The notes: generated by a model not told the origin, from the sequence alone. A stretch of DNA of 64,000 bases from Nitrososphaerota archaeon (GCA_016184315.1 JACPCU010000009.1:13330-77329); one strand, 5' to 3'. Shown: positions 6,587 through 34,070, counted from the first letter of the stretch. Translations and numbers: made by a program.

Positions 6587-6945
6587 GTGTCGAAGGCTAA
6601 AGACATAATGTGGATCCAATCAGTTTACTATGGGAATAACCCGGATTTGGTGGCAAGTGTTAACTTTGATTCTCTAGTTCTGCAGGCTCACTACGAGCAG
6701 GTTCCTGCTAAGGGTTCGACTACTGTTCACAGACATGGCGAGACCATTGTCCAAATACTGGAAGGTCATGGTCATAGTGAGATCCATGGGCGATTGGTTG
6801 AATTGGGAACCTGGTGATTTAGTGCTTATCCCTGCTGGTGCGTGACATAAGCATTGGTGTCATGGCGATAAGCCGGTGAAGTTCTTGGCCATCAGCACTT
6901 CTAGGTTGCTGAGGCACTCTTGGGACGAGAAGTAACGGAGGAACG
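6587..6945 (+). pseudogene. cupin-domain gene disrupted by a frameshift (~6800-6817) and an in-frame TGA (6853-6855)
   Basis: Frame A gives HRHGETIVQILEGHGHSEIHGRLVELGTW*. The adjacent frame continues the cupin as EPGDLVLIPAGA*HKHWCHGDKPVKFLAIS, with the PxGxxH motif interrupted by TGA. Confidence 0.6.
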
Positions 6946-7130
6946 TGGCTACAAGACGTATGCGGAGCTGAAAGCCGAGTAGCCATAGGAAAGACTGGTT
7001 TTGCATGAATAGTGGTTTCTATCTGGAAAACCATGGATTTCTACTGTTTGGTAACTTGGATTGGTTTATTTGTTTGTAATCATAGTGTGGAGTTAATTTT
7101 ATATTAAACTTAGCATACAAAAACGTTGTA

Positions 7131-8360
7131 ATGGTCAACACCGTGACTGCCGCGTCTCTGATTGCTCTTATCGTCGCAGCTGCGTCATTTGGCTACGCTA
7201 GTTTTGCTGTTTCAGGAGAAGCAGGGCAGCTCAGAACCCAGATTAAGCAGATCGATCAGAACTTGGCAACGGTTCAGAAGGATATCGGTGAGTTGAAGAG
7301 CAGCCTCCAGAGGTCCTTGGAGGAGACTAGGAAGATAGCTGCTGAAAGAGAGGCGCTCATACAGCAGATAACGCCCTTCGATCCTGCTCTTGTGGCGGCT
7401 GCGATCAAGGAAGGTGGTCTTACTATCTACTCGGTCAGAGATCAGGAGGACATAGTGGTGCTGTCACAGGAATTTCAGAAGAAGTTTCCGGGCATAAAGG
7501 TGAGTTTCTTTAATGCTAGGGAGCTTGAGCTTCTGGCTAGGATCACTGCGGAAGCGAAGCAGTCTCAGTCCACTTGGGATATCTATGATGCTGGCGCTAG
7601 GGTTTTGGGTGCTGCTGCGAACATAGGTGCTACTCAACGTTACGTGTCTAAGCAGTATACTCCGGAGAACTTTCCTATTGTTGATCCTGATAGGTTCTTT
7701 TATGGTGCGACGATCCCGGTGATGATCTATAATCCTAAGCTGGTGAAGAAGAGTGACTTGGATGCGGTTAAGACGTGGGAGGATGTTCCTAAGCTGGCTG
7801 CTAAGTATCAGGGTAAGGTCCTTATGGATCATCCGACGCGTCTAGGTTCGCATACTCAGATTCTGGGTGAATTGAAGAGTTATTGGAAGGATGATTCGAG
7901 GTGGAGCAAGTATCTGGGCGAGCTGAAGGCTCTTGGCGCAAGGATGTTCAAGAGTACTGGTGAGATTGGGCGGCTCATTATTTCTGAGGAGGGCTCTATT
8001 GGCATAGTGGGCTTGCTGCACGATGTGTTGCAGGCTAGGGTCAGAGGCAGCCCCCTTGAATTCATGCCTGTGTCTCCTCTTGTGGTGCAGCCTTTTGGGG
8101 TTGTCATCTCCAAGAACGCGCCTCACCCCAATTCTGCGAAACTGTTGGTCGAGTTCATGCTGAGCCCTGACGGTCAAGAAGTCTTCTCCAGGGCTTTCCG
8201 TTCACCTATGAGGACTGGGTTTGTCTCCAAATCTTCTGGCAGCGTGCTCTTCCCGAATGTTCCTTCGAACCAGATAATTGGCACCTTGAATCAGGAGCTC
8301 CTCGCAGATCCGCAGGACTTCGCCAAAAGGTATCTTGAGCCTGTTTTCGGGCCTGCTTGA
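7131..8360 (+). CDS. membrane-anchored ABC-transporter solute-binding protein (family 1, iron(III)-type fold likely)
   Basis: 409 aa. It has an N-terminal TM helix, then a coiled-coil linker, then a periplasmic-binding-protein-like body (SVRDQEDIVVLSQEFQKKFPGIKV, TWDIYDAG). No permease or ATPase genes are adjacent. Confidence 0.55.
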   Translation: MVNTVTAASLIALIVAAASFGYASFAVSGEAGQLRTQIKQIDQNLATVQKDIGELKSSLQRSLEETRKIAAEREALIQQITPFDPALVAAAIKEGGLTIYSVRDQEDIVVLSQEFQKKFPGIKVSFFNARELELLARITAEAKQSQSTWDIYDAGARVLGAAANIGATQRYVSKQYTPENFPIVDPDRFFYGATIPVMIYNPKLVKKSDLDAVKTWEDVPKLAAKYQGKVLMDHPTRLGSHTQILGELKSYWKDDSRWSKYLGELKALGARMFKSTGEIGRLIISEEGSIGIVGLLHDVLQARVRGSPLEFMPVSPLVVQPFGVVISKNAPHPNSAKLLVEFMLSPDGQEVFSRAFRSPMRTGFVSKSSGSVLFPNVPSNQIIGTLNQELLADPQDFAKRYLEPVFGPA

Positions 8361-8648
8361 AGGATAGGTTCAGGTTCCTAGGTTGACCATCTAGGCTGTG
8401 AGCTTGTTCTACTGCATAGTCTGAGGGGGATGGATCATGTTCCGGGGATTGAGCCTCTTAACTCTGTTATGTGTAAGCGCTGTTGAATTCCCGGGGTTTG
8501 CCGGTTTTCACACGCTGGCAAAGAACTGGTCTAGGGGGGCTATATAATGCGGGCAAAGCGAAGACGCCCCTATGCTTGAGCAGAAACGTTGTTTTGGAAA
8601 CTAAGCTGTTGACATCAGCTAATAGTATTAGTATATCTCTAGTGCTAG

Positions 8649-9164
8649 ATGTTTCGGAGTTGGATGGCTCTGTCGGGGCAAGGAGAGTTCAGTTTGATGC
8701 CGGTGGGTGTTGTTAGGACCAAATCTTCTGATGAAGAGGTTCGTGGTTGGGATCATAGCTATGAGTCCATAGTTGAGATTCTTCCCGAGTTTGAGGGTGC
8801 TTTGGATGGGTTGGATGGTTATTCGCATCTCTTCGTGCTGTGTTTCTTGAACAGGGTTAGTCCTGAGGATAGGACGACTCTCAAAGTGAGGCCTAGAAGG
8901 CTTCTGCGTAAGGGTTTCAAGCTTGAGGATCTTCCTTTGAAGGGTGTCTTCGCGTTGGATTCGCCTGTTAGGCCGAATCCTATTGGGTTGAGTTTGGTGA
9001 AACTGGTTCGCAGGGAGGGTAGGATGCTGGTGGTTGAAGGCTTGGATTACTTTGATGGCACTCCTGTGCTGGATGTGAAGCCGTATCAGCCTGAGCATAG
9101 GGTTGAGGAGGTTAGTGTTCCGGAGTGGTATCAGGATCTGAGGGATAGGGCTGGTCGAATCTAG
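8649..9164 (+). CDS. trmO: TsaA/TrmO-family tRNA methyltransferase
   Basis: 171 aa. YSHLFVLCFLN, RPNPIGLSLVKLV and LDGTPVLDVKPY are hallmark segments of the TsaA/UPF0066 family. The start may be an internal Met. Confidence 0.75.
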   Translation: MFRSWMALSGQGEFSLMPVGVVRTKSSDEEVRGWDHSYESIVEILPEFEGALDGLDGYSHLFVLCFLNRVSPEDRTTLKVRPRRLLRKGFKLEDLPLKGVFALDSPVRPNPIGLSLVKLVRREGRMLVVEGLDYFDGTPVLDVKPYQPEHRVEEVSVPEWYQDLRDRAGRI

Positions 9165-9202
9165 CTGGTTGACATTGTTGTAGGTTGCTTCGGAATTGGA
9201 GG

Positions 9203-9353
9203 CGCCGGGAGTCGGATTCGAACCGACGAGTCCCCGAGGGGACACGGGCTGTCGCGCTTCTGATAAGCCTCAAGGCCCGCGCATTACTGTGGACAGTTGT
9301 TGTCCACTCTGCCGTCGGGAGAGTAAGGTTTTCCCCTTACGTCTGATCCCGGC
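9203..9353 (-). tRNA. tRNA-Ser(UGA) containing three introns (proposed)
   Basis: Minus-strand read: acceptor GCCGGGA/TCCCGGC, discriminator G, T-arm GTCGG-TTCGAAT-CCGAC. The long variable arm is GTCCCC-TC-GGGGAC (class II). The anticodon stem is CGGGC/GCCCG with loop CUUGAG...A. The D-arm is GCA-GAGTGGAC..AA-TGC. An 85-nt mature sequence plus inserts of 32, 16 and 18 nt equals the observed 151 nt. CCA is not encoded. Confidence 0.7.
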
Positions 9354-9891
9354 GGAAGTTTGTTCCCGGCGTCGAGGCTGCTCTTGATGCTGCGGGCTTA
9401 AACCTTATGCTTCTGCGCGCGGCCCAGTGGGATAAGATGTGTTCGTCGAGTCTACCTTCGACGAGCTTTAACGCGTCTCTGAGGCTTACCAGTTTTACTT
9501 CGGCGATCTCGTCGCCAGCTTTGAGTTCTCCGTCTAGTCGCTGTACTTCGAAGACGATCAGGAGGAAACTCTTCTTTGTCCGCTGTACACCGTGGGTCAT
9601 CAACACTTCGTTTACTCGGCCTTTGACGCCTGTCTCCTCGAGGACTTCGCGTAGGACTCCTTCCTCAGCGTTCTCTCCTGGCTCAACGAAGCCTCCGGGT
9701 AGCCCCCAGCCTCTCCTGTCTTCACGCTTGTTGCGTACCAAGACGATCTGTTTTCCGTATCTGAGTATGGCTGCAGCTACGGGCGCTGGGTTGGCCCAGT
9801 CGATGAAGCCGCAGTTGGTGCAGGCCATTCTTAGTTTGGAGTAGATTTCTTCTTGGTTGAGGGGTGTCGCGCATTCGGGACAGTACTTCAA
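9337..9891 (-). CDS. NUDIX hydrolase with an N-terminal zinc ribbon
   Basis: 184 aa. It has CPEC...CTNCG followed by the Nudix box GLPGGFVEPGENAEEGVLREVLEETG. The ORF tail overlaps the tRNA-Ser 5' end by 17 nt. Confidence 0.8.
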   Translation of the reverse strand: MKYCPECATPLNQEEIYSKLRMACTNCGFIDWANPAPVAAAILRYGKQIVLVRNKREDRRGWGLPGGFVEPGENAEEGVLREVLEETGVKGRVNEVLMTHGVQRTKKSFLLIVFEVQRLDGELKAGDEIAEVKLVSLRDALKLVEGRLDEHILSHWAARRSIRFKPAASRAASTPGTNFRRDQT

Positions 9892-10020
9892 AGCCTAGTC
9901 TTCGATGGCCTGTTTCACTGGCAGATTAATCATTCTATTGGTTGCTTGATTAATTGGTTGACGGAGGTTTGTTGTTGAGTATGTGTCTGGTGAACCTTAA
10001 ATAAAGTTGCAGGTAGATGG

Positions 10021-10425
10021 GTGGCCGTTATGAGCGACCCTGAGCTTGAAGATATTATGCGTCGTAAGATGCGTATGATGGCTAGTGGCAGTGTTAAGCC
10101 TGAGCCTGCGGGCAGCGTTGTGTTGACGGTTGCTAATTTTGATCAGGTGATAGGTGGTGATAAGCCTGTGATAGTGGATTTCTGGGCTGAGTGGTGTGGC
10201 CCCTGCCGATACATGCATCCTATCTTTGAGCATCTTGCTGCGAAATATGCGGGTAAAGTGGTCTTCGGCAGACTAAATGTGGATGATGGTCAGGAGATAG
10301 CTGGTCGCTACGAGGTCTACTCTATTCCCACTTTCATTATCTTCAAGAAGGGTGCTCAGCTGGACAGGGTTATCGGTGCTGTGGGAGAGCGGGGCTTAGA
10401 TTCTCTTATCGCCGGCTACTTGTAA
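10021..10425 (+). CDS. trxA: thioredoxin
   Basis: 134 aa. The WAEWCGPCR active site is present. The likely true start is the ATG at 10030. Confidence 0.85.
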   Translation: MAVMSDPELEDIMRRKMRMMASGSVKPEPAGSVVLTVANFDQVIGGDKPVIVDFWAEWCGPCRYMHPIFEHLAAKYAGKVVFGRLNVDDGQEIAGRYEVYSIPTFIIFKKGAQLDRVIGAVGERGLDSLIAGYL

Positions 10426-10716
10426 ACTCGGACAAGGGGGCTTAGCTCGGTTGACTTGTTTGATGGCTTAGCTGCGCGACTGTAAGACCCCCCTTACAAT
10501 ATAAATTTCAAGTTCCCAGACGGAGTGCTCGGAGGGGAAGTTAGCGGAAACAGTAGGCGAATCGGTTCCTCATTATTTGTTGTTTCGATAAGCAACTGTT
10601 CTTGGCGACGATGTTTCTGGATTCTGGTTTTGATACGTTGCTAGCTTTCGGTGAATGCTTGAGACGAGATTTGCCTTATCTGATGCCCGTTTCTCATTTC
10701 GGGCCTAATATGGAGT

Positions 10717-11148
10717 CTACATAGAAGGCGGGAGCCTGACTCCCACCCTCCTTAATCTCGGCTGAAACACCTTGAGTTGTATCGCTAACGGGTTTGTCAC
10801 TGCGTCTTTGAGAGATACCACTGTCCGCTTCAATTCCTCTCCGTTTCTCACTGCCTTGTAGACTTCGTGTCTCTTTGCTCTGACGAATGCTTGCACAAGA
10901 CAGTCTATTCCGTTTGCTTCAAATTCTCTCGGTCTTGTGTCGTGAGCTCTTGCCAACTTCTTGCTTGAAAGTTGGTAGAGAGCGCTGTATGCCTTGCCCG
11001 ATGGCACGCCTGACCTTTTCGAAAGCACCGTCGCCCTGCTCTTTCCGAGCATTAGCATTGTGAAGTATGCTTTCGCTTGGTATTCTGTCAAATCAAGGGA
11101 TTTGAGGAGAGATATTACTCTCTCCTCTCTTCCGTTCAGCACGAACAT
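10717..11148 (-). CDS. TrmB-like wHTH transcriptional regulator
   Basis: 143 aa. LDLTEYQAKAYFTMLMLGKSRATVLSKRSGVPSGKAYSALYQL follows the TrmB N-terminal wHTH pattern. Confidence 0.55.
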   Translation of the reverse strand: MFVLNGREERVISLLKSLDLTEYQAKAYFTMLMLGKSRATVLSKRSGVPSGKAYSALYQLSSKKLARAHDTRPREFEANGIDCLVQAFVRAKRHEVYKAVRNGEELKRTVVSLKDAVTNPLAIQLKVFQPRLRRVGVRLPPSM

Positions 11149-11149
11149 T

Positions 11150-11401
11150 TCACTCGCCCTTCTTCTCGCCGTTCAGCGAGACATCGAACTGCTTGTATGG
11201 AAACTGCTTTCCCAAATCCTCGGGCTTTATCTTCGACTCAAGAACCTTGTTTCCGTATATCGCAACCTCTCCCTGCTCTGTCTGTATGTTGAAGACTTTG
11301 CTGAACTTACTCTGCCTCACAGACACGAGCCTTCCTTCCAGCGTGTCGTTCTCCTTCTCGAACCTGAACAGTTTCGCCTGCGTCTGCGTGTTTGCTTCCA
11401 T
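11150..11401 (-). CDS. hypothetical protein (83 aa), tightly coupled to the TrmB-like gene
   Basis: The ORF stop lies 1 nt upstream of the next start. I recognise no motif. Confidence 0.4.
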   Translation of the reverse strand: MEANTQTQAKLFRFEKENDTLEGRLVSVRQSKFSKVFNIQTEQGEVAIYGNKVLESKIKPEDLGKQFPYKQFDVSLNGEKKGE

Positions 11402-11592
11402 TCAAATCAACCTCCAATTTTTTTCTGCCTCGGAATGTCGGGCATTCCTCAGCGCAGGTATTGGAGCGAAGCGTTCCAGCGGTTCGACCGACCATTTGAG
11501 AAAGGGGAAAATCCGTAAGTCGGTGCTTGAACAGGCGTGAAAGCACTCTTAGGATTTTAGGGAGAACACGTAGTCTTCAGAATGTTGAATCG

Positions 11593-12015
11593 TTACTTCT
11601 TCACTAAAGCCTTGAGTTCTGCACCCAATCCCTTTACGTTAATTCCCACAACCTTGAAAGGTTTCTTGGTAAAATCCACTTGGATTCCAACAATAACCGG
11701 CAGCAGACCCTTGACAAATAAATTCGCAAGCGGTTCCAGAGTAGCAATGGCCAGAAGCTCTTGCACTGCAAAAATCGCGTTACGTGTCCCTCTATCACAA
11801 AATCCACCTATGTTGGCAAGGTGTTCGGACACCTTCAAGTAGAGTCGTTGTATTTCAATCTCATCGTGTGAACTCTTAACTCTTGATGGGCTAGACAGCG
11901 ACTTATCCAATAGGGCGAGCAACTCCTTGGATACATCTACTAGGGCACTTCTTTCTTTCATTACTAGTCCAACGTCGCTCAATCTGGCGCTGCCGGTACC
12001 CATCTCAGCGGGCAT
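11593..12015 (-). CDS. hypothetical protein (140 aa)
   Basis: This is the longest ORF in the interval, on the same strand as its neighbours. I recognise no motif. Confidence 0.4.
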   Translation of the reverse strand: MPAEMGTGSARLSDVGLVMKERSALVDVSKELLALLDKSLSSPSRVKSSHDEIEIQRLYLKVSEHLANIGGFCDRGTRNAIFAVQELLAIATLEPLANLFVKGLLPVIVGIQVDFTKKPFKVVGINVKGLGAELKALVKK

Positions 12016-24992: not shown

Positions 24993-25322
24993 ATGTCAGT
25001 ACAGGAATATAGTAGCACAAAAACATGGGTCGCGCAACTGGTTCAACAGCGGCCTCATATGACCGTGCAGAACTACTTATGGGGGCTCCAAGTCTTTTGC
25101 GACTGGGCCAAGAAGAATCCCGATGAGCTTGTATTAGAAAGACAGGGAGAAATGACTGGAGAACCTGAACCTCTTGAAGCTCAGGCATCCAAACGGATTC
25201 TGAGTTTTCAAGCAAACGGTAAACTGAAGACGAAACACAGTAGGGAAATGATAGTCACCGCGCTTGCTTCGTTCTATGAGAACAACAAGGTAGGCCTGCA
25301 AGCACAAGCCCGGAAACAATAG
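24993..25322 (+). pseudogene. possible N-terminal (SAM-like domain) fragment of a tyrosine integrase
   Basis: 109 aa. The pattern TVQNYLWGLQVFCDWAKKNPDEL...IVTALASFYENN resembles integrase N-terminal core-binding domains. No catalytic domain follows. It lies 88 nt from the tRNA 3' end. Confidence 0.3.
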
Positions 25323-25409: not shown

Positions 25410-25587
25410 TGGGGCCGGTGGGATTTGAACCCACGATCGCCAGCGCACTGGGCGCACCGAGCGCACCCCAGGTTCACCGCGCAGATGCTCTGGTATCCTA
25501 TTGGCGGACTCACCTAGACCAAGTTATCCGTATGTTTCTGTCCGACCTAGATAGGTAGACAGTGGCATTACTCTAGACGACGGCCCC
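25410..25587 (-). tRNA. intron-containing tRNA, isotype unresolved (Pro-like acceptor; 178 nt)
   Basis: Minus-strand read: acceptor GGGGCCG/CGGCCCC, discriminator A, T-arm GTGGG-TTCAAAT-CCCAC. The D-arm GTCTAG...CTTGGTCTAGGT is split by a 49-nt insert. About 54 further extra nt lie between the D-arm and T-arm. A CUGGGGU heptamer is present, but I could not pair a clean anticodon stem. Confidence 0.6.
25573..25587. repeat. att core, tRNA-proximal copy (ctagacgacggcccc)
   Basis: Exact 15-mer shared with 34004-34018. It corresponds to tRNA positions 1-15. Confidence 0.65.
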
Positions 25588-25621
25588 CTAACATTACGCT
25601 TAGGAGGGATGGTTTAAGGGT

Positions 25622-26041
25622 TTAGGAAGGTCTTCCATTACGGAGAAATTGTAGCTTTTGTAGGTCTCTATAGGCCCCTCTTATGTCGCCCTTAAGTAAT
25701 CTTCCAGGCGCAAATATACGGAGTCGCTTCTTGTGCTTTTTTGATACGGGGAGTTTCTTTCGTACTACCGCATTATATTTTCTCATGATGCGTTCTTCAG
25801 CTTTGGTAACTTTTCCAGCATTTGTTCTGTTCGCCTTATCCGCCACAGGCTGTAGGGAGAAAACTGCATTTTGTAGTCTACCAGACGCAAGATGGATAAT
25901 AGCATCCTCAATATGACATTGTAAAGTGGTGTCTAGTAAATATCTGAACCGATTTAATAAGACGCCAAAAAAGTCGTGCGCTACGGGATCATGTTCAACA
26001 ACACATTTCTGACATTGTATACCTTTGGGAGCCAAGGGCAT
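25622..26041 (-). CDS. hypothetical protein (139 aa), element-borne
   Basis: ORF with an N-terminal CQKC...H.. cluster and a basic C-terminus. I recognise no family. Confidence 0.4.
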   Translation of the reverse strand: MPLAPKGIQCQKCVVEHDPVAHDFFGVLLNRFRYLLDTTLQCHIEDAIIHLASGRLQNAVFSLQPVADKANRTNAGKVTKAEERIMRKYNAVVRKKLPVSKKHKKRLRIFAPGRLLKGDIRGAYRDLQKLQFLRNGRPS

Positions 26042-26084
26042 CTTTTTGTGTCAGGAGGCTCGCCTTTATGGTTATTCCTCGTCT

Positions 26085-26366
26085 TTATCGATCGGCTGCC
26101 CCTTTTTTACCTTTAGATGTTCTATGACGTGCGGTGCGGGAGGCTTCACGAGGTTTAGGGGAGTTAGGTAAAGGTAGAGGCTTCGTTTTACCCACGTAGT
26201 GCCATCTGATACGAGTCGATTTGGCTTTAGACGGATCGTAAGAGTAGTGTGCTACGTACCTGTACTGGTATTCCTTCCCGTAATTATTGCGGACGGTCTT
26301 GGTCTGTATGCTGCCCTGCTCCCCGCATCGCGGGCATCTGATCGAGGCTTCTGCTTCCATGTCCAT
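26085..26366 (-). CDS. zinc-ribbon, basic-tailed small protein (93 aa)
   Basis: It has a CPRCGEQGS motif, then a beta-rich core and a lysine/arginine-rich tail. It is likely DNA-binding. Confidence 0.45.
   Translation of the reverse strand: MDMEAEASIRCPRCGEQGSIQTKTVRNNYGKEYQYRYVAHYSYDPSKAKSTRIRWHYVGKTKPLPLPNSPKPREASRTARHRTSKGKKGAADR
26163..26174. repeat. extra copy of the element motif gttaggtaaagg (inside the 93-aa ORF)
   Basis: Exact 12-mer shared with 26380-26391 and 31770-31781, and in inverted form with 26403-26414. Confidence 0.5.
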
Positions 26367-26379
26367 GTTCCCGCTGGTA

Positions 26380-26414
26380 GTTAGGTAAAGGAGGGTATTT
26401 AACCTTTACCTAAC
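26380..26414. promoter_or_regulatory. perfect 12-bp inverted repeat (gttaggtaaagg N11 cctttacctaac) in a divergent promoter region; putative operator
   Basis: The arms are 26380-26391 and 26403-26414. It lies between divergent ORFs 26085..26366(-) and 26426..26725(+). The AT-rich spacer is agggtatttaa. Confidence 0.55.
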
Positions 26415-26425
26415 TTTTATGGTAA

Positions 26426-26725
26426 ATGATCGTCAGAAAATCCGTCGGAGTATTGAGGGAGGTCACGCTCGAGCATAGTCCCTTTCTAGCCTCGTCCGTC
26501 GAGGGGATGGATATGGCAACGATAGAGGGCATAAGCTGGATGGTTATAGTGAAGAATCGAGGGCTTAGGACGACGCTCGGTGCCCCGCCTCTCGAGCGCT
26601 ACTGGTTCGGGGGAGATAAGGCGTTTAGGCAGGCTAACGATGTGTTTACCCATTTGAGCAGCGAGATGCTTAACAAAGTTATGGATACGGGGTTTCCGAT
26701 TAAGGTAGGTAAGGGTAAGGTATAG
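26426..26725 (+). CDS. hypothetical protein (99 aa), element-borne
   Basis: ORF only. It is divergent from the Zn-ribbon gene across the palindrome. Confidence 0.4.
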   Translation: MIVRKSVGVLREVTLEHSPFLASSVEGMDMATIEGISWMVIVKNRGLRTTLGAPPLERYWFGGDKAFRQANDVFTHLSSEMLNKVMDTGFPIKVGKGKV

Positions 26726-26981
26726 CTGGGTTAATACAAAGGGGTTTTGCTATTTACTACTACTACCCTTAAGCCTTAATAATATCTTCCGCTATTATAT
26801 TGATTGGAATAACTGTTCGCCGCCCTTAATTGGTGCGGCTTGCTGCCCGTTTCATCGGGTGGCGTTGTTGCGGCCTCATTCATGGGGATTCGTGACATTT
26901 TCTACCTTTAGGTCTACCTCCTGACGAGCCTATGTGATAGGCGAAACCATCGTATCATAATTGGATGGTCGAGGTATCATT

Positions 26982-27131
26982 ATGAAGTCAACTGTAATAC
27001 GGGCTTTTACTCTGCCTAGGGAGCTGGATGATGCCCTAAAAGCGTCGATTCCTAAAGGTGAGCGAAGTCGCGTTGTAAGTGAAGCGATCCGAGTAGCATT
27101 AATCACTAGCGGAGGTGAAGGCGGACGGTAG
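26982..27131 (+). CDS. ribbon-helix-helix (CopG/Arc-like) protein, 49 aa, not in the ORF track
   Basis: Hand translation gives MKSTVIRAFTLPRELDDALKASIPKGERSRVVSEAIRVALITSGGEGGR. It has the beta-strand/helix/helix pattern typical of RHH repressors. Confidence 0.55.
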   Translation: MKSTVIRAFTLPRELDDALKASIPKGERSRVVSEAIRVALITSGGEGGR

Positions 27132-27553
27132 GATTAGGGCTTACCCCCGAAGACGCAAGGGGATATCTAGATACCTTATCTTATATCAAGACGCATGGCC
27201 TCTTTACGCACGACAAGGAGCTTGCACTAATCGAGTCTGAGATCTTCCATGCGCCGAATGAGCTAAAGGATTTAGCTACGTACACCACTTCTCCCTCTGG
27301 AGGAGAGTCTAGGCGTTACGGTAGTTACAACGGCGTCCCCTCTGTACTCGTAACTGAAGTGAAGGTGGACGACGGTGGCAATCCTACCCTTATTCGTAAT
27401 CGAGTCGAGCCGTGGGCTGATCTTACGGATAGGGATGCTCGACGATTAACGTTTGCCATCAGGTCGCTTCTAGGAAGGTATCCTCTGGAAACGCGCACAA
27501 AGACTCTGTACCGCGACGATTTTGACCTTGCTGGCAGGCCTTTGCAGGGTTAA
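27119..27553 (+). CDS. hypothetical protein; frame open from 27119 but first canonical start is GTG 27359
   Basis: The open frame reads ...LTPEDARGYLDTLSYIKTHGLFTHDKELALIESEIFHAPNELKDL... with no ATG/GTG/TTG before 27359. It overlaps the RHH stop by 13 nt in the -1 frame. Confidence 0.35.
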   Translation, partial: RRTVGLGLTPEDARGYLDTLSYIKTHGLFTHDKELALIESEIFHAPNELKDLATYTTSPSGGESRRYGSYNGVPSVLVTEVKVDDGGNPTLIRNRVEPWADLTDRDARRLTFAIRSLLGRYPLETRTKTLYRDDFDLAGRPLQG

Positions 27554-27567
27554 GGGGTAGATTTACG

Positions 27568-28485
27568 ATGAGGAATTACTTAAAAGGTCAATCAGAGGTA
27601 TTTACGGAGGTCAAGGGCGATTCTAAGGGTGTAGATGAGGATATAACGATTAGAGGTGTCCTTTTAACGTTAGGGGCAAAAAATGCCAACGGTTGGGCTA
27701 TTAGGCCACAGGACGGGGATTATTTAATCGAGGCTCTGCGTGGCTTACCCCTCCGATCGACCCATAGCGAAGACCCTATGTCAACCTACGGTAAGATCAT
27801 CGATGCATGGCGAGAGGGAGATACCATCTTCTACCGAGCAAACGTATTCGGCAACGACAGTAAAGCATTAAGAATTATTCGTGAAGGTCTAGCGAAATCT
27901 GTTAGCATAGCAGTCGAGTTCAGTAAAACGGTCTGCAGCTCCTGCGGTAAGTTGGCTAGAGATAATCAGGAACCTAACCTCTTACAACACCTCTGTGAAA
28001 ACGCCCATGAATTGGTCATCGATCCTAAGCCGTATGAAGTAAGTCTCGTCTCATTTCCCGCATACAAGGAGTCATCCATTTCGGTGGCAGGTAAGAAGCA
28101 GCGTAGTCTAGTAAATCTACTCGATAGGCTCGATACGGTTACGAATGATTTACTTAGGAAGCGAAGGGAGGCGGACGGTAAGGGTAAACCTGAAACACTA
28201 CCCGATAGTCCTGAGGACGATCAGGACGATGCCCCCGTTACTCGTAAAGGTAAGAGTGGATCATCGTTGCTTGATAAGACTAACTGGAAACGTCCAAGGG
28301 AGGAGAAACCCGTTACGGTGGGGCCGACTCCCTCTATGATTAACATGCACAGTTTCAGGGAGGCCGAGTCGGCGTACAGGGCTAAGGAGATTTTAGAGAG
28401 CGTCGATATTTTCGGAAAAGAGAGAATACTCCTTGTTGACCCCCTTATGGCTGAACTGAGGAAGGTTAAGGCTAGGAAACAGTAA
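27568..28485 (+). CDS. HK97-family prohead (capsid maturation) serine protease-like protein with an acidic/basic C-terminal extension
   Basis: 305 aa. LPLRSTHSEDPMSTYGKII fits the His motif context, LAKSVSIAVEF fits the G-x-S-x-G-F-like Ser motif, and YEVSLVSFPAYKESS fits the E-v-S-l-V..PA motif. A CSSCGK...HLC insert lies between motifs. Confidence 0.6.
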   Translation: MRNYLKGQSEVFTEVKGDSKGVDEDITIRGVLLTLGAKNANGWAIRPQDGDYLIEALRGLPLRSTHSEDPMSTYGKIIDAWREGDTIFYRANVFGNDSKALRIIREGLAKSVSIAVEFSKTVCSSCGKLARDNQEPNLLQHLCENAHELVIDPKPYEVSLVSFPAYKESSISVAGKKQRSLVNLLDRLDTVTNDLLRKRREADGKGKPETLPDSPEDDQDDAPVTRKGKSGSSLLDKTNWKRPREEKPVTVGPTPSMINMHSFREAESAYRAKEILESVDIFGKERILLVDPLMAELRKVKARKQ

Positions 28486-28505
28486 ACGGGGGTGAAATAA
28501 GTAGA

Positions 28506-28721
28506 TTGGATACATTAAGCGGTTATCTCAAGGAATTCGAGATGCGTAAGGAACTGGAAACTCTTGCACGCAAAGGGCAGAAGCGGATCAGCCTACAGCC
28601 CAGTTCCCCAGAGTTCATAGACGAAATGCAGGGTTTAACAGAGGATATGAGGCGTAGAATGAGGCAGGGGTTAGACGGAGCCTTCGCTGAGTTGAACAGG
28701 GTAGCTGAACCCTTTGATTAG
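28506..28721 (+). CDS. hypothetical helical protein (71 aa)
   Basis: ORF directly downstream of the protease. It is charged and helical. Confidence 0.35.
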   Translation: MDTLSGYLKEFEMRKELETLARKGQKRISLQPSSPEFIDEMQGLTEDMRRRMRQGLDGAFAELNRVAEPFD

Positions 28722-28848
28722 TGACATAGGCAGATGGCTATCTGGGCTGGCAAAGTCTAGGAGCCATTACGCCTGCCCAGCATGCGGCAAAACGTTCTCC
28801 CTCGAAGTACAGTACGTTCAGCATAAAAGGGATTTTCCTACGCACTAA
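28714..28848 (+). CDS. possible tiny C2H2 zinc-finger ORF (44 aa, TTG start)
   Basis: Hand translation gives ...SRSHYACPACGKTFSLEVQYVQHKRDFPTH*. The start codon is uncertain. Confidence 0.25.
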   Translation: MISDIGRWLSGLAKSRSHYACPACGKTFSLEVQYVQHKRDFPTH

Positions 28849-28953
28849 TCAGCGGAGCATCGAACGTATATCGTTACATGGTAGTAGCAGATGCTTACTA
28901 GGTAGTAAATCTAACCCCAGTTAAGTCTTATATAGTCGTATATAAACTAATAG

Positions 28954-28970
28954 CTAATCGACGGGTTTCT
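28954..28970. repeat. 17-bp direct repeat flanking the IS, left copy (ctaatcgacgggtttct)
   Basis: Identical to 30015-30031. Confidence 0.75.
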
Positions 28971-30014
28971 ATCTTATCCCTAAATCATTTCCTCCCCTAC
29001 TCAAGAGACTTCACAAGCTGATCAGATACGTTAGACTGAGCGAGTTTTGGATCAGCCTATGGAGGAGGCATGGACATGCTGTGCTGGATGAGAAGCAGGT
29101 CGAGTGGATCATCAAAGCCAAGATCCAGGGGAAGAGGAACATGGACATCGCCGACGCTATGGGGATATCCTCCAGAAGGGTCAGACAGCTCTACTCCCAA
29201 TACAGGAAGACGGGAGCAATACCAGTCCTCAGGAAGCCTGGTAGGCATAGGGCTCCTGAGGTCACTGTGTATGAGAGGGAGGTCATCAAGGAGGCTTATG
29301 GGAGGTTCAGGATGTGCGCCTGCTACCTTGAGAAGATACTCTCAGCTCATGGGGTACGTATCAACCATAAGAGGATTCACAGGGTGTTGAGGGAGGAGGG
29401 ATATGCATTGAATGAGCCTAGGAAGCAGCGTAGGAGGAAGTGGATACGCTACGAGAGGGAGCACTCCAATTCACTCTGGCATACCGATTGGCACCGGATC
29501 AAGGATCCCAGATGGAGGGGCCAGTGGCTCATAGCCTACGAGGATGACGCATCCAGGTTCATCACGGGCTTTGGGGTATATCCAACCTTGACATCAAGAT
29601 CCTCGGTGGAGGTGTTCGACAGGGCTGTGAGGAGGTATGGTAAGCCGAGATCCATACTCTCAGACCATGGGACAACATTCTACGCGGTGGAGGCAGAGTC
29701 TAGGGAGAAGGGGTTGACGGAGTTCGAAAAGTATCTGTTGAAGAACAAGATCAGGTTCATCATGGGTAGAGTGGATCATCCTCAAACCAACGGTAAGATA
29801 GAGAAGTTCTTCGACATCTTCGAGAAGAAGGTCAGATACTTCCAGTCAGTAGAGGAGTTCATGGAGTGGTACAACTGCGAGAGACCCCATGGAGCATTCG
29901 ACCTGTCAAAGCTGGAGACACCAGTACAGATCTTCTACAAGAGGATGGAGGACCGAGAGCAGCTAACCGACCCGGACACAATACCTAGGGAGGAAATGAT
30001 TCTGTGATAAAACA
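28971..30014 (+). mobile_element. IS481-like insertion sequence (1044 bp) with imperfect ~22-bp terminal inverted repeats
   Basis: IRL atcttatccctaaatcatttcc matches the reverse complement of 29992-30014 (tgttttatcacagaatcatttcc) at 17 of 22 positions. It has a single DDE ORF whose stop lies inside IRR, and it is flanked by 17-bp direct repeats. Confidence 0.7.
29081..30007 (+). CDS. DDE (rve/integrase-core) transposase with N-terminal HTH
   Basis: 308 aa. The HTH is MDIADAMGISSRRVRQLY. The catalytic D is in WHTDW, the second D in ILSDHG, and the E in HPQTNGKIEKF. The C-terminal YNCERPHGA is typical of IS481/IS3-type rve domains. Confidence 0.85.
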   Translation: MLDEKQVEWIIKAKIQGKRNMDIADAMGISSRRVRQLYSQYRKTGAIPVLRKPGRHRAPEVTVYEREVIKEAYGRFRMCACYLEKILSAHGVRINHKRIHRVLREEGYALNEPRKQRRRKWIRYEREHSNSLWHTDWHRIKDPRWRGQWLIAYEDDASRFITGFGVYPTLTSRSSVEVFDRAVRRYGKPRSILSDHGTTFYAVEAESREKGLTEFEKYLLKNKIRFIMGRVDHPQTNGKIEKFFDIFEKKVRYFQSVEEFMEWYNCERPHGAFDLSKLETPVQIFYKRMEDREQLTDPDTIPREEMIL

Positions 30015-30031
30015 CTAATCGACGGGTTTCT
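30015..30031. repeat. 17-bp direct repeat flanking the IS, right copy
   Basis: Identical to 28954-28970. Confidence 0.75.
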
Positions 30032-30136
30032 CTAAGGCCTGTCGTACGTCCTTCCATCGGGGAGGTAGCTCCTCCCCTACTAGCTCTTAACGGGCTGGAT
30101 GGAGAAGGCGGTAAATCTTAGGGAGCTAGTAGAAAA

Positions 30137-31144
30137 ATGATAAAGCCAGAAGGGCGAAACAATGATAGTCATTCCCTAGCGGATAAGATAACCCCTAAGC
30201 GGTTTAACCAGTTAATTAAGAAGTTATCCTCAGATTGTATCGAGCTATGGGAAAAATATTACCCGCCCCTTAAGGATGATACTGGCGCCCCTGTTCCTAC
30301 CAAACTCAGTGCCCGTATCCAAGGGGAGATCGGGGAAGACGCTGTCTATGAGTATGCTCTACTACCCTTTCATAAAGCATCGAGCATCGTTCGCAACGAC
30401 TGTACCATCAGGCGAGCCAAGGGAGGCGCTGATTTCTACGTTAATATTGGAGGCAAGATGGTTTTGGTAGAGGTAAAGAATCTCAACCCAGATTCATACA
30501 TCACACCAGCTTGGGCAGAAAGCCACATAATCAGCCGTTTCGAGATTAGTCGCAACCTACCAGACGTTGCGGAGCGCATAGTTATCATAATAGGAGCGAA
30601 CAACACGAGGTGGTATCCAGTAGAAAAAGCCCTACTAAAACATAGCATAAAACTACTACATTTACCCTGCCTACCTAGTATAAATGATACTAATGAGGAG
30701 CGTAAGAGGATCATACAGTCCTTCCGTGAGAGGTATTATGTTATAGTAGCTCATCTACTTCATAACCACGTGTATTTTACTAGTAGCACTAAGGTTATAG
30801 ACGATGTTCTTAGGGTATCTAACATTAGCTTAAGGCCCTGCGATAAGGGTTTACCTACCGGTCGCGGGCCCCCAGATGCCTTTTTACCGTTTGGATCGGA
30901 TGTAGCTGCCCAGCGTAAGCTACTGGAGGGGTATATGCAAATGCCTCAGATGCATGTACGCGTTACCAGCGGTTTTTTCGATGCATATTTACGAGCATCC
31001 ATGCATTCTTTCGGCTGGAGCGATGGGGGACTGGCCTCCTTATACGGCTCTCTCATTAGGAAAACATCCATGAGAGGAGCCTTTCCTAATTATCCTACCG
31101 CTCCTACAGTTCCTACGAGATGCATTACGCTTGCAGGGGTCTAA
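30137..31144 (+). CDS. PD-(D/E)xK-like nuclease-fold protein (N-terminal ~200 aa); C-terminal half of doubtful coding quality
   Basis: GEIGEDAVYEYAL...GGADFYVNIGGKMVLVEVKN gives a D...E-x-K arrangement like restriction-endonuclease-fold proteins. The C-terminal 130 aa has no recognisable features. Confidence 0.4.
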   Translation: MIKPEGRNNDSHSLADKITPKRFNQLIKKLSSDCIELWEKYYPPLKDDTGAPVPTKLSARIQGEIGEDAVYEYALLPFHKASSIVRNDCTIRRAKGGADFYVNIGGKMVLVEVKNLNPDSYITPAWAESHIISRFEISRNLPDVAERIVIIIGANNTRWYPVEKALLKHSIKLLHLPCLPSINDTNEERKRIIQSFRERYYVIVAHLLHNHVYFTSSTKVIDDVLRVSNISLRPCDKGLPTGRGPPDAFLPFGSDVAAQRKLLEGYMQMPQMHVRVTSGFFDAYLRASMHSFGWSDGGLASLYGSLIRKTSMRGAFPNYPTAPTVPTRCITLAGV

Positions 31145-31579
31145 CAGCCTCTGGAGAAGGGGACGATGGGGTGTCTCTGCCTCCTTGGGATACCCCGGAT
31201 CCCCTTTAATGCTACTCCATGAGTAGAGGTAGGGCAGGTCGTTAGCCTACACCTGTTAAAATGCTCGCTGGAAGAATTAACCCCTCGAAAGGTGGGCACC
31301 CTACCTATTTTTCATGCTTACGAGAGCTGAGCTGGTCGATCTTATGTTCTTCCATCCAGCCCTAGCCCGATGAGTAGGGTTCCCCGCGGCTACATGGGCT
31401 TCACCGTGGGGAGCGTTATGATTACAGAGAGGTGATTACCTACGGCAGTTAAGAAGGTTAAGGGCGGACGTAAGCCTACGAAGGTTAAGAAGCGTAAGAC
31501 CACGAAACGATAGTAAGACGGATCATAGATAGATGGTCTCTGTGTGGCATCCCCCATTTTTATTTAACATCATTACGAT

Positions 31580-31774
31580 ATGAAGCCTATTAATCCCCCT
31601 GTGGGAATTGACATAGATACTGTAGCTGGGCAGGAATGGCTCCTGCACCGTATAGCTGAGATACTGGCTACGGAGCATGATCTTACTACCCTAGACATGA
31701 AACGCCTCCGCCTCCTGAAGCAGGTAACGAGAGAGCGATTAAGGGTTATGCTGGCCAGCGGATCAGTTAGTTAG
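31580..31774 (+). CDS. hypothetical protein (64 aa)
   Basis: ORF only. Its 3' end carries the element motif. Confidence 0.3.
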   Translation: MKPINPPVGIDIDTVAGQEWLLHRIAEILATEHDLTTLDMKRLRLLKQVTRERLRVMLASGSVS

Positions 31775-31781
31775 GTAAAGG
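31770..31781. repeat. copy of the element motif gttaggtaaagg just upstream of ORF 31789
   Basis: The 15-mer tagttaggtaaagga is shared with 26377-26391. Confidence 0.5.
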
Positions 31782-31788
31782 ATTATTC

Positions 31789-32190
31789 ATGAGTGAAGAT
31801 GAGCCAAGCCCTACACGACAATGGGTAACTAAGGCCCTTAAAGCTAAAGGATGGACTGAGCAACAGATCGCGGATAGCTACAAGCCCGGCAGCGATAAGA
31901 TAGCCCTTATGAATGAGGCAAGATTACGTAAGAAACAGGAACGCCAGCAAGCCCTAGAGAAGATCGACAGCTACGAAGGGCTACTCAACATGACAAAGCT
32001 ACTCCTACAGGACGTATTACGAGAGCTCAGCAAAAATAAGAGCATCAGCCAAGCCGATAAGCGGAAGCTACGGTATTACAAGATAGCCTGCTCCCTAGTA
32101 AACAGCGCGAAGCAAACATCCGCGCTGCGCAACCAAGAGGCTCTAAGGAAACGGTTAGACGCGTTAGAGCAGCGCATAGAAAAAGCCTAG
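31789..32190 (+). CDS. hypothetical coiled-coil protein (133 aa)
   Basis: Charged helical repeats (KKQERQQALEKIDSYEGLL..., RKRLDALEQRIEKA). Confidence 0.4.
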   Translation: MSEDEPSPTRQWVTKALKAKGWTEQQIADSYKPGSDKIALMNEARLRKKQERQQALEKIDSYEGLLNMTKLLLQDVLRELSKNKSISQADKRKLRYYKIACSLVNSAKQTSALRNQEALRKRLDALEQRIEKA

Positions 32191-32263
32191 ACCAAACTTA
32201 CGTAATTAAGCGTGAATAAAGTTACTTAACTGGCTTACTACCATACCTTAGGGGGTAAGCAAT

Positions 32264-32557
32264 ATGGGAGGTGCGTTTTCGGCGCTGACGACCCTGATCC
32301 TCCTAATTAGTGGAATAGTCATGGTTCTACAGGGTGACTGGCTCTTAGGATGGATGCTAGTGATAGGGGGCACCATAGTAGGCGCAATCGGGAAGGCTTC
32401 GCGATCTAAACCTTCGCGATCGAGAGGCACGTCGCCGCCTTCTGCCGGGAAGTCGAGAACATCTCAAGAATGGCTTGAGGCTCTAAGGCTTAGACTTGCG
32501 AAAGGCGAGATAACAAAGGAGCAGTATGAAGAGTTAAGGAAAACGCTTAGTGAATGA
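32264..32557 (+). CDS. small membrane protein with a C-terminal SHOCT-like domain
   Basis: 97 aa. It has two TM segments, then EWLEALRLRLAKGEITKEQYEELRKTL, which fits the SHOCT consensus. Confidence 0.5.
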   Translation: MGGAFSALTTLILLISGIVMVLQGDWLLGWMLVIGGTIVGAIGKASRSKPSRSRGTSPPSAGKSRTSQEWLEALRLRLAKGEITKEQYEELRKTLSE

Positions 32558-32563
32558 GCTTTC

Positions 32564-33952
32564 CTAAGAGCGTATGATCTCCACTACTGCCTTATCCGAG
32601 TTCAACGCGCTTACGAAGCGAGCCTTCCCGCCGTTCACGAGGCGCTTCGCCTCCTTCACGGAGACTATCTTTTGCCTACTTACAGGGACTGTATGATGAT
32701 TAGCCCCCTTGCCTACCCGCAAATTTGTTGCTTCGACTTCCCGCTCCACTTGCTCTGAGACACGGTGCGCGATCCCGTATCGGAACACTACTTCACGCCG
32801 ATACTTCCCAAGCCTACGCCAATACTCCCCTAACTCTTCTACCGTCATCTTATCCAGCTCTTCGTTATCCTTCTGAAACTCTTCAAATAGAGGTGTGTTA
32901 GCTTCGGTATATTCGGCGAGCTCCGCACTGAGGATTTGACAGTTCATTTGCAGCGCCCTTCGATAAATCAACGCTTCAACATCCTGCCGTGATATCTCCG
33001 GAGGGGAAGTTAGGATCGTTAACCGCTTCTCCGCCTTAAGATACTCTTGCTTCAACTGATCATCCGTTAATCTAAGATACGCAGCGTCTAAACCGAACTT
33101 ATGCCCCATGAATAGCTCCACAATGCCCCGATCGACCCCGGCGGATAGCATCTGTGAGAAAAAGTATTTCCTGAAACTGTGAGGGTGGATCTGCTGTCTT
33201 TTACTGTCGGCATCCATTTTTCCCAACAGCCCGGCTTTCTCCACAGCCCTCATAACCTGCCGATAAGACGCATCAGTGGTCAACCTTACCTTAGGGTTGC
33301 CTTCATTAAAAAATACGTACTGATCTAACTGCTTGATGCGGTCGCCGAGCCACTCCTTAAGAAAGCCACTTGTCTCGTCTGTAACATATACAGTTCTACC
33401 CTTCCTTGTCTTCGTAAACCTAGCTTGCAGCCTGATGCTAGTCGGCTTGGAGGTAAAGTCGATGTCGCCCACCCTTAAGCCGGTAGCTTCGCCGAGACGC
33501 ATACCGCTACTCGCTAGGAGGGTAACAAGAGCCTTAGCCCGCAGACCGCATCTTAGAACTATACTCCGTAGCTCCTCCTGTGTAGGCGCTCTATCCATGC
33601 TTACCTCGTAGTTCGCTGGCAACACAATTCGGTTCTTTAGTCGTGCCAGATCCAGCGGAATCCCTTCGCTCAGCAAGAACCCCTTAACTGCCCCATAATA
33701 CGTCCTGATAGTCTTCGGCGACTTACCCTTTCCAACCAAATAGCCGATGTATTTATCCAAAGCTTCGTAAGGATCGAGCTTCCCATCTCGGATAACCTCG
33801 ATCACCACATCCACATCCTTGTAACCAAGGCTTCGGCCCCAAACCCTCAGCGCCCCCTCATATGTCTCAGCCGTCTTTTCGCTACGCCTCGCCTTACGCT
33901 CCCGGTAATCCTCCGCTCCCAAACCCCACTTAAACCTCCTAACTAGCATCAA
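32564..33952 (-). CDS. tyrosine recombinase (phage/plasmid-type integrase), intact
   Basis: 462 aa. It has an N-terminal SAM-like domain. Catalytic residues are SSGMRLGEATGLRVGDI (Arg), HPHSFRKYF (HxxR) and FMGHKFGLDAAYL (His...Tyr). The likely true start is the ATG at 33949. Confidence 0.85.
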   Translation of the reverse strand: MMLVRRFKWGLGAEDYRERKARRSEKTAETYEGALRVWGRSLGYKDVDVVIEVIRDGKLDPYEALDKYIGYLVGKGKSPKTIRTYYGAVKGFLLSEGIPLDLARLKNRIVLPANYEVSMDRAPTQEELRSIVLRCGLRAKALVTLLASSGMRLGEATGLRVGDIDFTSKPTSIRLQARFTKTRKGRTVYVTDETSGFLKEWLGDRIKQLDQYVFFNEGNPKVRLTTDASYRQVMRAVEKAGLLGKMDADSKRQQIHPHSFRKYFFSQMLSAGVDRGIVELFMGHKFGLDAAYLRLTDDQLKQEYLKAEKRLTILTSPPEISRQDVEALIYRRALQMNCQILSAELAEYTEANTPLFEEFQKDNEELDKMTVEELGEYWRRLGKYRREVVFRYGIAHRVSEQVEREVEATNLRVGKGANHHTVPVSRQKIVSVKEAKRLVNGGKARFVSALNSDKAVVEIIRS

Positions 33953-33961
33953 CTACCGTAT

Positions 33962-33969
33962 ATTTAAAT
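33962..33969 (-). promoter_or_regulatory. TATA-like box (ATTTAAAT) ~15-20 nt upstream of the integrase start
   Basis: It is the only strongly AT-rich octamer between the att core and the integrase ATG. This spacing would imply a near-leaderless transcript. Confidence 0.35.
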
Positions 33970-34003
33970 GCTAGGTAGGATATTCTTATCCCTCTAAACC
34001 AAG

Positions 34004-34018
34004 CTAGACGACGGCCCC
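34004..34018. repeat. att core, integrase-proximal copy (ctagacgacggcccc)
   Basis: Exact 15-mer shared with 25573-25587. On the minus strand it is followed by D-loop-like CTTGGTTTAGAGG, and preceded by an AT-rich promoter-like flank (attaata ~35 nt upstream). Confidence 0.65.
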
Positions 34019-34070
34019 GCTTCATTCACTCGGTCTCTAAATTCGGTATTAATGCATAGCGGGGGTTGAT

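Follow-up and report, generated by a model that had tools for sequence, protein, structure and literature searches.

A five-exon tRNA-Pro(GGG) gene and an integrated element

The window analysed here is a whole stretch of 64,000 nucleotides (nt) from an archaeal genome assembly (GCA_016184315.1, JACPCU010000009.1:13330-77329), with coordinates counted from its first letter. Its features of interest are a transfer RNA (tRNA) gene for proline, tRNA-Pro(GGG), at 25410-25587, an integrated element of about 8.48 kb (25524-33997, counting one copy of the hexamer CTTGGT) and the tyrosine integrase gene that this element carries (32564-33949). The tRNA gene, the integrase gene and the repeats at the two ends are all on the minus strand, as is the element itself, which consists mostly of ORFans together with the integrase and an inserted insertion sequence (IS). 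Read on that strand, the exact 15-nt repeat GGGGCCGTCGTCTAG (repeat family D12) stands perfect at 25587-25573, within the tRNA gene, and again at 34018-34004, and it spans exactly tRNA position 1 to position 15. At the distal, integrase-proximal copy the sequence runs directly into CTTGGTTTAGAGG (34003-33991), and at the tRNA-side copy 49 nt (25572-25524) stand between the 15-mer and CTTGGTCTAGGTG (25523-25511); 10 of 13 positions are identical between the two 13-mers, namely the whole of CTTGGT and four of the seven positions that follow. An initial annotation of the window had described the repeat, the 49-nt insert and the 10-of-13 match, and re-reading the sequence confirmed all three, with both copies of the repeat exact. 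Dinucleotide shuffles give an expectation of 0.01 matches for this 15-mer; since nine unrelated exact repeats of at least 15 nt are present elsewhere in the window, it is context and not length that gives the repeat its meaning.

Rfam places a tRNA at 25410-25587 with 30.3 bits against a cut-off of 29, and ARAGORN at default settings called no tRNA there; with introns allowed, ARAGORN proposed a single-intron, 85-nt model that was wrong and was replaced by a four-intron, five-exon model obtained by hand analysis and a scan for bulge-helix-bulge motifs. The default miss and the score barely above threshold suggest that multi-intron tRNAs are probably under-annotated in such genomes, and three introns are the usual reported maximum for archaeal tRNA genes. 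In our model, exon 1 (25573-25587) is followed by intron 1 (49 nt, 25524-25572) at position 15/16, by exon 2, which comprises CTTGGT (25518-25523) and a completing CT (25516-25517) in the D-loop and D-stem, and by intron 2 (16 nt, 25500-25515) in the D stem, the boundaries of which slide by up to 3 nt. Exon 3 (25490-25499), intron 3 (17 nt, 25473-25489) at position 30/31, exon 4 (25466-25472), intron 4 (20 nt, 25446-25465) at the canonical position 37/38 and exon 5 (25410-25445) complete the gene. The mature sequence is fixed by intron-less orthologues (L015, L026, L043, L092, L095 and L097), recovered by scanning species-representative genomes with the 3' 25-mer of the tRNA, which read GGGGCCGTCGTCTAGC[C/T]TGGTCTAGGAT[G/A]CCAGCCTGGGGCGCTGGCGG[T/C]CGTGGG... 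The predicted spliced product is a canonical 76-nt tRNA-Pro(GGG) that folds as such, with three differences from the orthologue common to L026, L043, L092, L095 and L097 and three from that of L015; a 17-nt intron 2, yielding a 75-nt tRNA, was dropped for 16 nt on the same comparison. The orthologues also bear out that the integrase-proximal copy reads like an intron-less tRNA, and they divide the 10-of-13 match that had been taken as a tRNA continuation: CTTGGTCTAGG is indeed mature D-loop and D-stem exon, but the closing TG of the 13-mer at the tRNA side consists of the first bases of the 16-nt intron 2.

Intron 4 forms a perfect bulge-helix-bulge of the strict type, with a CTGG/CCAG central helix, a 4-bp intron-side helix and, after removal of intron 3, a 5-bp exon-side helix. 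Intron 1 can fold around a GTCT/GGAT helix (two Watson-Crick and two G-U pairs) with 3-nt bulges AGA and AAC, a 3-bp intron-side helix and an internal hairpin. The motif proposed for this insert is thus present in a relaxed form, while the exon-side helix demanded by the strict form is missing. The same layout is found in the conserved chromosomal 15/16 intron of six Bathyarchaeia genomes (L028, L040, L046, L054, L061 and L066), with GTCT/GGAC, bulges AGA and AGC, and 4 bp. Given this folding potential and the canonical tRNA left after its removal, the insert is, as the initial annotation held, a plausible tRNA intron at 15/16, which the splicing endonuclease could excise.

The integrase gene is intact and encodes 461 amino acids from its ATG (PF00589, 6e-25; PHROG integrase, 1.7e-34), and a metagenome-assembled genome (MAG) at NCBI holds the identical protein as 452 amino acids, which corresponds to a TTG start at 33922. 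Among 28 homologues R151, K180, R260, H283 and Y291 are invariant and H255/H257 invariant or nearly so, and the protein thereby possesses the R-K-H-R-H/W-Y residues of tyrosine recombinases and phage integrases. Its gene starts 55 nt downstream of the distal repeat and is whole, with the attachment (att) segments outside the ORF (open reading frame), a layout of the pNOB8 (non-suicidal) and not of the SSV (suicidal) type. The adjoining intact integrase, together with the family junctions described below, upholds the identification of the two repeats as attachment-site junctions of an integrated element, here attL on the integrase side and attR on the tRNA side.

Population alleles and the likely crossover site

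Assemblies of the same population, 99.4-100% identical to the window, were found in seven runs of the Logan collection by exact-protein look-up; Logan contigs are built with k=31 and have no 31-mer in common (PMC12424806). The occupied allele, 100% identical to the window, is present in SRR12113432 and SRR12113418 (contigs L285, L292/L295 and L299). In four other samples, contigs that are 99.4-99.99% identical to the window break at the junctions. Within SRR12113422, one contig arrives from the host flank and stops exactly at ...GGGGCCGTCGTCTAGCTTGGT (T21; L286), and another runs from the element through the 49-nt insert and stops exactly 30 nt (k-1) after the C of CTTGGT (L293). Contigs from the tRNA body stop exactly at the first base of CTTGGT (C16) in SRR12113426 and SRR12113390 (L296 and L297), and that of SRR12113428 (L300) extends four bases beyond C16 to read CTAG-CTTGGT-CTAGGTG, with CTAG where the window has the intron end ATAA. 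These five contig ends match the k=31 de Bruijn graph of a population in which a sister allele, flank-exon 1-CTTGGT-CTAGG, coexists with the occupied one, and they point to an unoccupied allele GAATGAAGC-GGGGCCGTCGTCTAG-CTTGGT-CTAGGTGAG, a tRNA gene that would lack both intron 1 and the element. A junction of host flank GAATGAAGC, exon 1 GGGGCCGTCGTCTAG and insert AGTAATGCC was seen in none of the seven samples. The stop of L300 four nt into exon 1 is not predicted by a two-allele graph, and low coverage is its likeliest cause. L293 shows no branch at T21, so that a free form of the element is undetectable in that sample.

Across the four junction sequences observed, CTTGGT, at D-loop positions 16-21, is the sole sequence common to attL (33998-34003), attR (25518-25523) and the unoccupied gene. 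If the target lacked the insert, as the unoccupied allele does, a crossover inside the 15-mer would have left the insert at attL; it is found at attR, which places the crossover to the right of the insert, in CTTGGT. The hexamer is thus the likely crossover (overlap) segment and the likely location of the exact cut sites, and the role of crossover core assigned to the 15-mer in the initial annotation falls, since the occupied and unoccupied junctions have only CTTGGT in common. At attR this hexamer coincides with the ends of contigs L296, L297 and L293 and is preceded by CTAG in L300. At attL, contig L286 runs from the host flank through the 15-mer to CTTGGT, and as these three are contiguous with the unoccupied allele, the integrase-proximal copy (34004-34018) is the host's own displaced 5' end, exon 1 of its original gene. 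It had been called an element-side arm; the element arm proper begins beyond it, with TTAGAGG. The tRNA-side 15-mer (25573-25587), its promoter-like upstream region and the 49-nt insert are, by contrast, linked to the element: contigs L292, L293 and L299 join this replacement exon to element DNA, the exon is missing from the L300 junction read and the insert is missing from the unoccupied allele. The initial annotation was therefore accurate in what it observed and largely inverted in how it read it.

The attB site that we infer, TCGTCTAG-CTTGGT-CTAGGTGA (half-sites TAG/CTA), and its attP counterpart, ACGGATAA-CTTGGT-TTAGAGGG (half-sites TAA/TTA), would each carry short inverted half-sites, supplied by D stem and loop, around a 6-bp overlap. 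Inverted half-sites flanking an overlap are the usual layout of tyrosine recombinase sites. The residual match between TTAGA and CTAGG behind the hexamer is best read as a likeness of core-type half-sites beside the crossover and not as tRNA ancestry.

Arm P' of the element (TTAGAGGGATAAGAATATCCTACCTAGC...), from the crossover to the integrase start (33950-33997), has the motifs GGATAA, ATACGG and CTACCTA in common with the 49-nt insert. Arm P, directly upstream of the rebuilt tRNA (25588-25640), contains a TATA-like CTTAAA (25613-25618, -31 to -26), a candidate promoter for the rebuilt gene. The upstream region of the original host gene (34019-34070), between the stop codon of an asparaginase/GatD-like gene and tRNA position 1, is contiguous in contigs L285-L287 at 99.99-100% identity, and its A/T-rich boxes, ATTAATA (-35 to -29) and TTTAGA (-23 to -18), are the putative promoter of that gene. 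This region now faces the integrase: together with 21 nt of tRNA it points into the integrase gene, the ATG of which lies 69 nt after tRNA position 1, and the captured tRNA promoter could drive integrase transcription.

Related integrases and their tRNA targets

Homologues of the integrase at 41-54% identity come from metagenome contigs. About 100 nt upstream of their genes, a conserved chromosomal flank is followed by GGGGCCGTCGTCTAGCTTGGT (tRNA-Pro positions 1-21, uninterrupted) and then by divergent element sequence, for example TTTGCCG, CTTGCCC or TTTATCTG, a junction seen in L136, L142, L144, L145, L148, L159, L160, L161, L164 and L165. In about a dozen related elements only CTTGGT is kept between the 15-mer and the point of divergence; the initial annotation had named conservation of the 10-of-13 match in other element copies as a test, and this conservation extends to the first six bases alone. 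Other family members use other tRNAs and stop likewise at the D-loop GG. In a sister subfamily (L139, L156, L137, L301 and L302) the target is the 5' end of a multi-intron initiator tRNA-Met, with uninterrupted repeats of 20-25 nt, the inverted integrase gene adjoins the tRNA, and a conserved element-derived GGTTTAAAAACTTACT abuts tRNA position 1, which indicates that supply of a promoter and a 5' end by the element is the norm in this family. A large share of the contigs with these integrases (metagenome loci L125-L204) begin 30-330 nt upstream of the gene, at the att junction; assemblies seem to be broken there systematically, as would follow from the coexistence of occupied and unoccupied alleles in numerous communities.

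Two relatives are especially informative. The first, L159 (Ga0315281_10005934), holds a complete 5.9-kb element (positions 6048-11939) with an uninterrupted 21-mer at attL, and its rebuilt gene at attR reads GGGGCCG[25 nt]TCGTCT[63 nt]AGCTTGGTCTAG..., with inserts at 7/8 (25 nt) and 13/14 (63 nt) that leave the 21-nt att region in three fragments, each 6-8 nt long (GGGGCCG, TCGTCT and AGCTTGGT). Both inserts have good bulge-helix-bulge potential, one with GGGC/GCCC and a 6-bp helix, the other with a mismatch-free 4-bp central helix (one G-U) and a 5-bp helix, and their predicted splicing restores a canonical tRNA 5' end. The tRNA of L011 has the same three downstream introns (92.6% identity over 135 nt) and neither 5' insert; it was considered as a syntenic empty site for L159 and rejected, the alignment being limited to the tRNA, and serves here as a related gene without 5' inserts.

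In the second, L147 (Ga0315298_1013544, positions 17-8140), the host tRNA-Pro(GGG) (GGGGCCG...CGGCCCC) is split at CTTGGT without a replacement exon. Its attL reads exon 1-CTTGGT-TTATCATG and its attR, about 8 kb away and beside an inverted integrase gene, ...TTATCATAA-CTTGGT-CAAGG...CCA, so that the two junctions, CTAG-CTTGGT-TTAT and ATAA-CTTGGT-CAAG, have only CTTGGT in common. The arm adjoining the core is not tRNA-like and ends in ATAA, as does the insert of the window. The element brings its own complete tRNA-Pro(GGG) (GGGGTCG...CGACCCC), 111 nt inside attL and with a 31-nt intron at 15/16; this intron interrupts an otherwise perfect target site within the element itself.

A variant attL is found in L154 (Ga0315285_10005422, positions 214-300), where TGATAGGAC and the integrase start come directly after host flank and exon 1, and CTTGGT and an arm of about 95 nt are missing; they were probably deleted between CGTCTAG-like repeats, and the element would thereby be locked in place. 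No obvious tRNA was found upstream of the integrase in L303, and a tblastn search found no close integrase relative within 8 kb of any genomic tRNA-Pro(GGG) locus. Chromosomal tRNA-Pro(GGG) genes carry introns of unrelated sequence at 7/8 or at or near 15/16 (L023 and L123; L028, L040, L046, L054, L061 and L066; L289-L291), all of them 5' of CTTGGT, and other relatives have downstream introns only. In L289-L291 the tRNA is preceded, at about 36 nt, by the end of a housekeeping-type gene.

Proposed origin of the D-loop intron and its wider context

These data favour a model, which we consider probable, where the 49-nt intron arrived with the 8.5-kb element when the latter recombined at the D-loop CTTGGT of the host tRNA-Pro(GGG). 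The tyrosine integrase would have acted on CTTGGT (positions 16-21), separating the promoter and first 15 nt of the tRNA gene from the remainder; the host promoter, exon 1 and CTTGGT would thereby have been left at attL, pointing into the integrase gene, and the host-derived remainder of the gene (25410-25517) would have come to lie downstream of the attR CTTGGT. At its other end the element would have brought a TATA-like box, tRNA positions 1-15 in perfect copy and, abutting the crossover, a 49-nt spacer; the hybrid gene at attR could then be transcribed, and the tRNA splicing endonuclease of the host could process the transcript to a normal 76-nt tRNA. The intron would thus be P-arm DNA of the element written as an intron, and attP an intron vector. 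The alleles show linkage and not history, and they fit an attP-borne insert (one event), a later gain in attR (two events) and a pre-existing host insert (two events) alike. We favour an insert already present in attP at integration because it is the most parsimonious of the three and because of the repetition of the pattern in L159 and L147, the ATAA end held in common with the L147 arm and the symmetric core.

The closest competitor, to which we give a clearly smaller but real chance, has the element integrating through an uninterrupted 21-nt identity (attP as arm-exon 1-CTTGGT-arm), with the 49-nt intron gained afterwards in the attR gene. It predicts exactly the alleles seen, sister subfamilies do carry uninterrupted 5' copies of 20-25 nt, and in this clade introns are readily gained by tRNA-Pro(GGG) genes, which have three to four each at varying positions. 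It requires, however, that two events took place among strains of 99.4-99.99% identity, and that this coincidence was repeated in L159, with its two inserts, and in L147. It also leaves unexplained the ATAA end found in the non-tRNA arm of L147, the inverted half-site formed by the insert end and the start of the P' arm and, as a weak point, the sharing of GGATAA, ATACGG and CTACCTA. Such a gain would represent an earlier stage of the same vector cycle, as excision at CTTGGT would take the insert along in attP.

Several observations weigh against an attP-borne intron, beginning with the equal fit of the alleles to a later gain. The unoccupied allele was never assembled end to end and rests on five contig ends and a 4-nt read-through, and at the branch the second allele could represent another element and not an empty site. 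No free circular attP was found in Logan contig L293, IMG/VR or plasmids, so that an intron-bearing attP is deduced from the integrated form. The bulge-helix-bulge of intron 1 is relaxed, with two G-U pairs and no exon-side helix, and its splicing is a prediction. The motifs common to the insert and the P' arm were matched by 113 of 2000 shuffles, which is not significant and at most suggestive. Finally, related genomes commonly carry chromosomal introns at or near 15/16, with no element or attL-like remnant in the 2-7 kb upstream of the intron-bearing L023-L123 loci, and host-borne introns at this place clearly exist. The individual searches for a free or second copy were a plasmid search with the element (no match), a search of IMG/VR for the predicted attP junction (no match), a scan of IMG/VR with the integrase profile (distant matches only, at most 34% identity) and a search for a second att copy in L001, L003 and the genome loci (none found). 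The element ORF adjoining the P arm is an ORFan.

The initial annotation had proposed the reverse order, in which a pre-existing D-loop intron of the host truncated the homology, and an attP with an intron-less 5' tRNA segment recombined on the shortened 15-nt identity, and had seen in the locus an example bearing on the idea, published by Randau and Soll in 2008 (as summarised in PMC4090602), that tRNA introns or split tRNA genes protect against integration. The 15-nt repeat does stop exactly at the exon-intron boundary, and chromosomal 15/16 introns do occur in related Bathyarchaeia-like genomes. We nevertheless regard this order as improbable: the seven samples contain no insert-bearing unoccupied allele, and the insert, linked to the element, is lacking at the unoccupied junction. 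This order would need both an allele that was not observed and a crossover within positions 1-15, when the L147 junctions have only CTTGGT in common, and the element integrated anyway, leaving the gene unprotected. Within the sampled population the locus therefore lends the idea of a protective host intron no support, and the insert cannot be credited with limiting targeting. As in the summarised proposal, the intron breaks the sequence recognised by the integrase, and a functional gene without an intact attB is left after integration; unlike in that proposal, the intron here goes with the element, and the unoccupied gene lacks it. Any protection that it gives would benefit the resident element, or in L147 the element's own tRNA copy, by shielding it from further recombination, as Sugahara et al. 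also suggested. That the repeat and the 10-of-13 match reflect chance or faulty assembly, without any recombination history, is an idea that the nine exact repeats of at least 15 nt in the window might encourage, but it is effectively refuted by the coincidence of the repeat with tRNA positions 1-15 at 55 nt from the integrase start, by independent assembly of the same junctions in several samples and by the same 21-nt tRNA 5' segment about 100 nt upstream of a dozen related integrases.

More tentatively, and with distinctly less confidence than for the element-borne origin of this one intron, this family of D-loop-targeting integrases may repeatedly have supplied the non-canonical 5' introns (7/8, 13/14 and 15/16) of Bathyarchaeia-like tRNA-Pro(GGG). 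Arm-type DNA beside the crossover would be kept as a bulge-helix-bulge intron between replacement exon and host gene, and after decay of the element the insert would persist, fixed in the chromosome as an intron; the 15/16 introns of L028-type genomes, L147 and L289-L291, which are unrelated in sequence and all abut the left edge of CTTGGT, would then be fossils of integrations. If this holds, L147, with its split host gene and complete replacement tRNA, would tie intron gain to the origin of split tRNA genes.

The nearest precedent is tRNA-Thr(GGU) of Caldiarchaeum subterraneum, where Sugahara et al. (2012; PMC3293823) described a 5' tRNA fragment, a putative recombinase and a tRNA that carries an additional intron at 24/25, together with an intron-poorer unoccupied allele, and proposed that an intron-bearing attP recombines with an intron-free attB. 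A review of archaeal tyrosine recombinases (Badel et al. 2021; PMC8371274) cites that work as the single proposal of attP as an intron vector, and a survey of thaumarchaeal integrated elements, in which 5' integrations are rare, does not describe the present arrangement (PMC6563490). Both loci combine a 5' tRNA fragment with its native upstream region, a recombinase gene, a full tRNA with an extra non-canonical intron and, in the same natural population, an intron-free unoccupied allele, and in both the intron is taken to have come with the mobile element. They differ in host lineage and tRNA, in intron position (15/16 in the D-loop here, 24/25 there), in size (8.5 kb against a 1.9-kb insertion) and in the clear tyrosine integrase with a full catalytic set found here. 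The shared segment at our locus is just 6 bp, and the element belongs to a family with graded variants that have no intron, one or two introns, or a complete replacement tRNA. The empty allele, which in Caldiarchaeum was read from sequenced clones, is deduced here from contig ends.

As for other archaeal integrases of the pNOB8 type, the integrase gene is whole and lies beside an att junction, and the tRNA target is reconstituted, a likeness that is one of layout. In known cases of this type the identities are 29-69 bp and mostly in the 3' part of the tRNA (PMC6563490), whereas here the crossover lies in the D-loop, the 5' part is replaced and the identity is 6 bp. The arrangement also resembles that of bacterial tRNA-targeting phages and islands under the sublocation rules of Williams (2002; cited from PMC8371274), where a loop and its stem-derived inverted repeats provide overlap and core sites and the element restores the displaced part of the gene. 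Bacterial elements target the anticodon or T loop, with seamless replacement of the 3' part; at the present locus the D-loop is used, and the 5' part and promoter are replaced with an intron as bridge. Bridging of the junction by an intron is possible only with protein-based tRNA splicing.

The origin of non-canonical archaeal tRNA introns and split tRNA genes has long been debated, and the mobile-element route has so far been represented by one locus in one population (PMC3293823). The present locus adds an independent and cleaner second case with a defined integrase family, a 6-bp D-loop segment and both occupied and unoccupied alleles, as well as a graded set of solutions that runs from an uninterrupted copy through one and two introns to a whole replacement tRNA. 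It offers a testable alternative to the view that introns protect tRNAs, namely that integration creates the intron, for a mechanism that is published but thinly documented and in a population for which public read sets exist. It also illustrates that short att repeats beside intron-rich tRNAs can be misassigned, the visible repeat here being a predicted functional replacement exon and not the core.

On the chromosome the element is flanked by housekeeping genes, namely the asparaginase/GatD-like gene at one end and HflX at the opposite end. Proteins identical to the integrase and to the GatD-like protein occur in an NCBI MAG labelled Thaumarchaeota, and this label (Thaumarchaeota/Nitrososphaerota) is at odds with the tRNA-Pro structure and the best named GatD-like matches (73% identity), which indicate Bathyarchaeia; GatD homologues at 71-72% identity were not syntenic with the tRNA arrangement of the window. 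A 109-amino-acid ORF (24993-25322, plus strand) lies 88 nt from the tRNA 3' end in occupied and unoccupied strains alike; it has no Pfam or PHROG match, and its similarity to the N-terminal region of the integrase is not significant (BLASTP E = 3.2). Possibly a different element once targeted this tRNA from its 3' side and left the ORF behind. The IS inside the element (28954-30031, plus strand) encodes an rve-family transposase (29081-30007) and has 23-nt inverted repeats; the exact direct repeat that flanks it (CTAATCGACGGGTTTCT, 17 nt) is long for a target duplication of an rve-type transposase.

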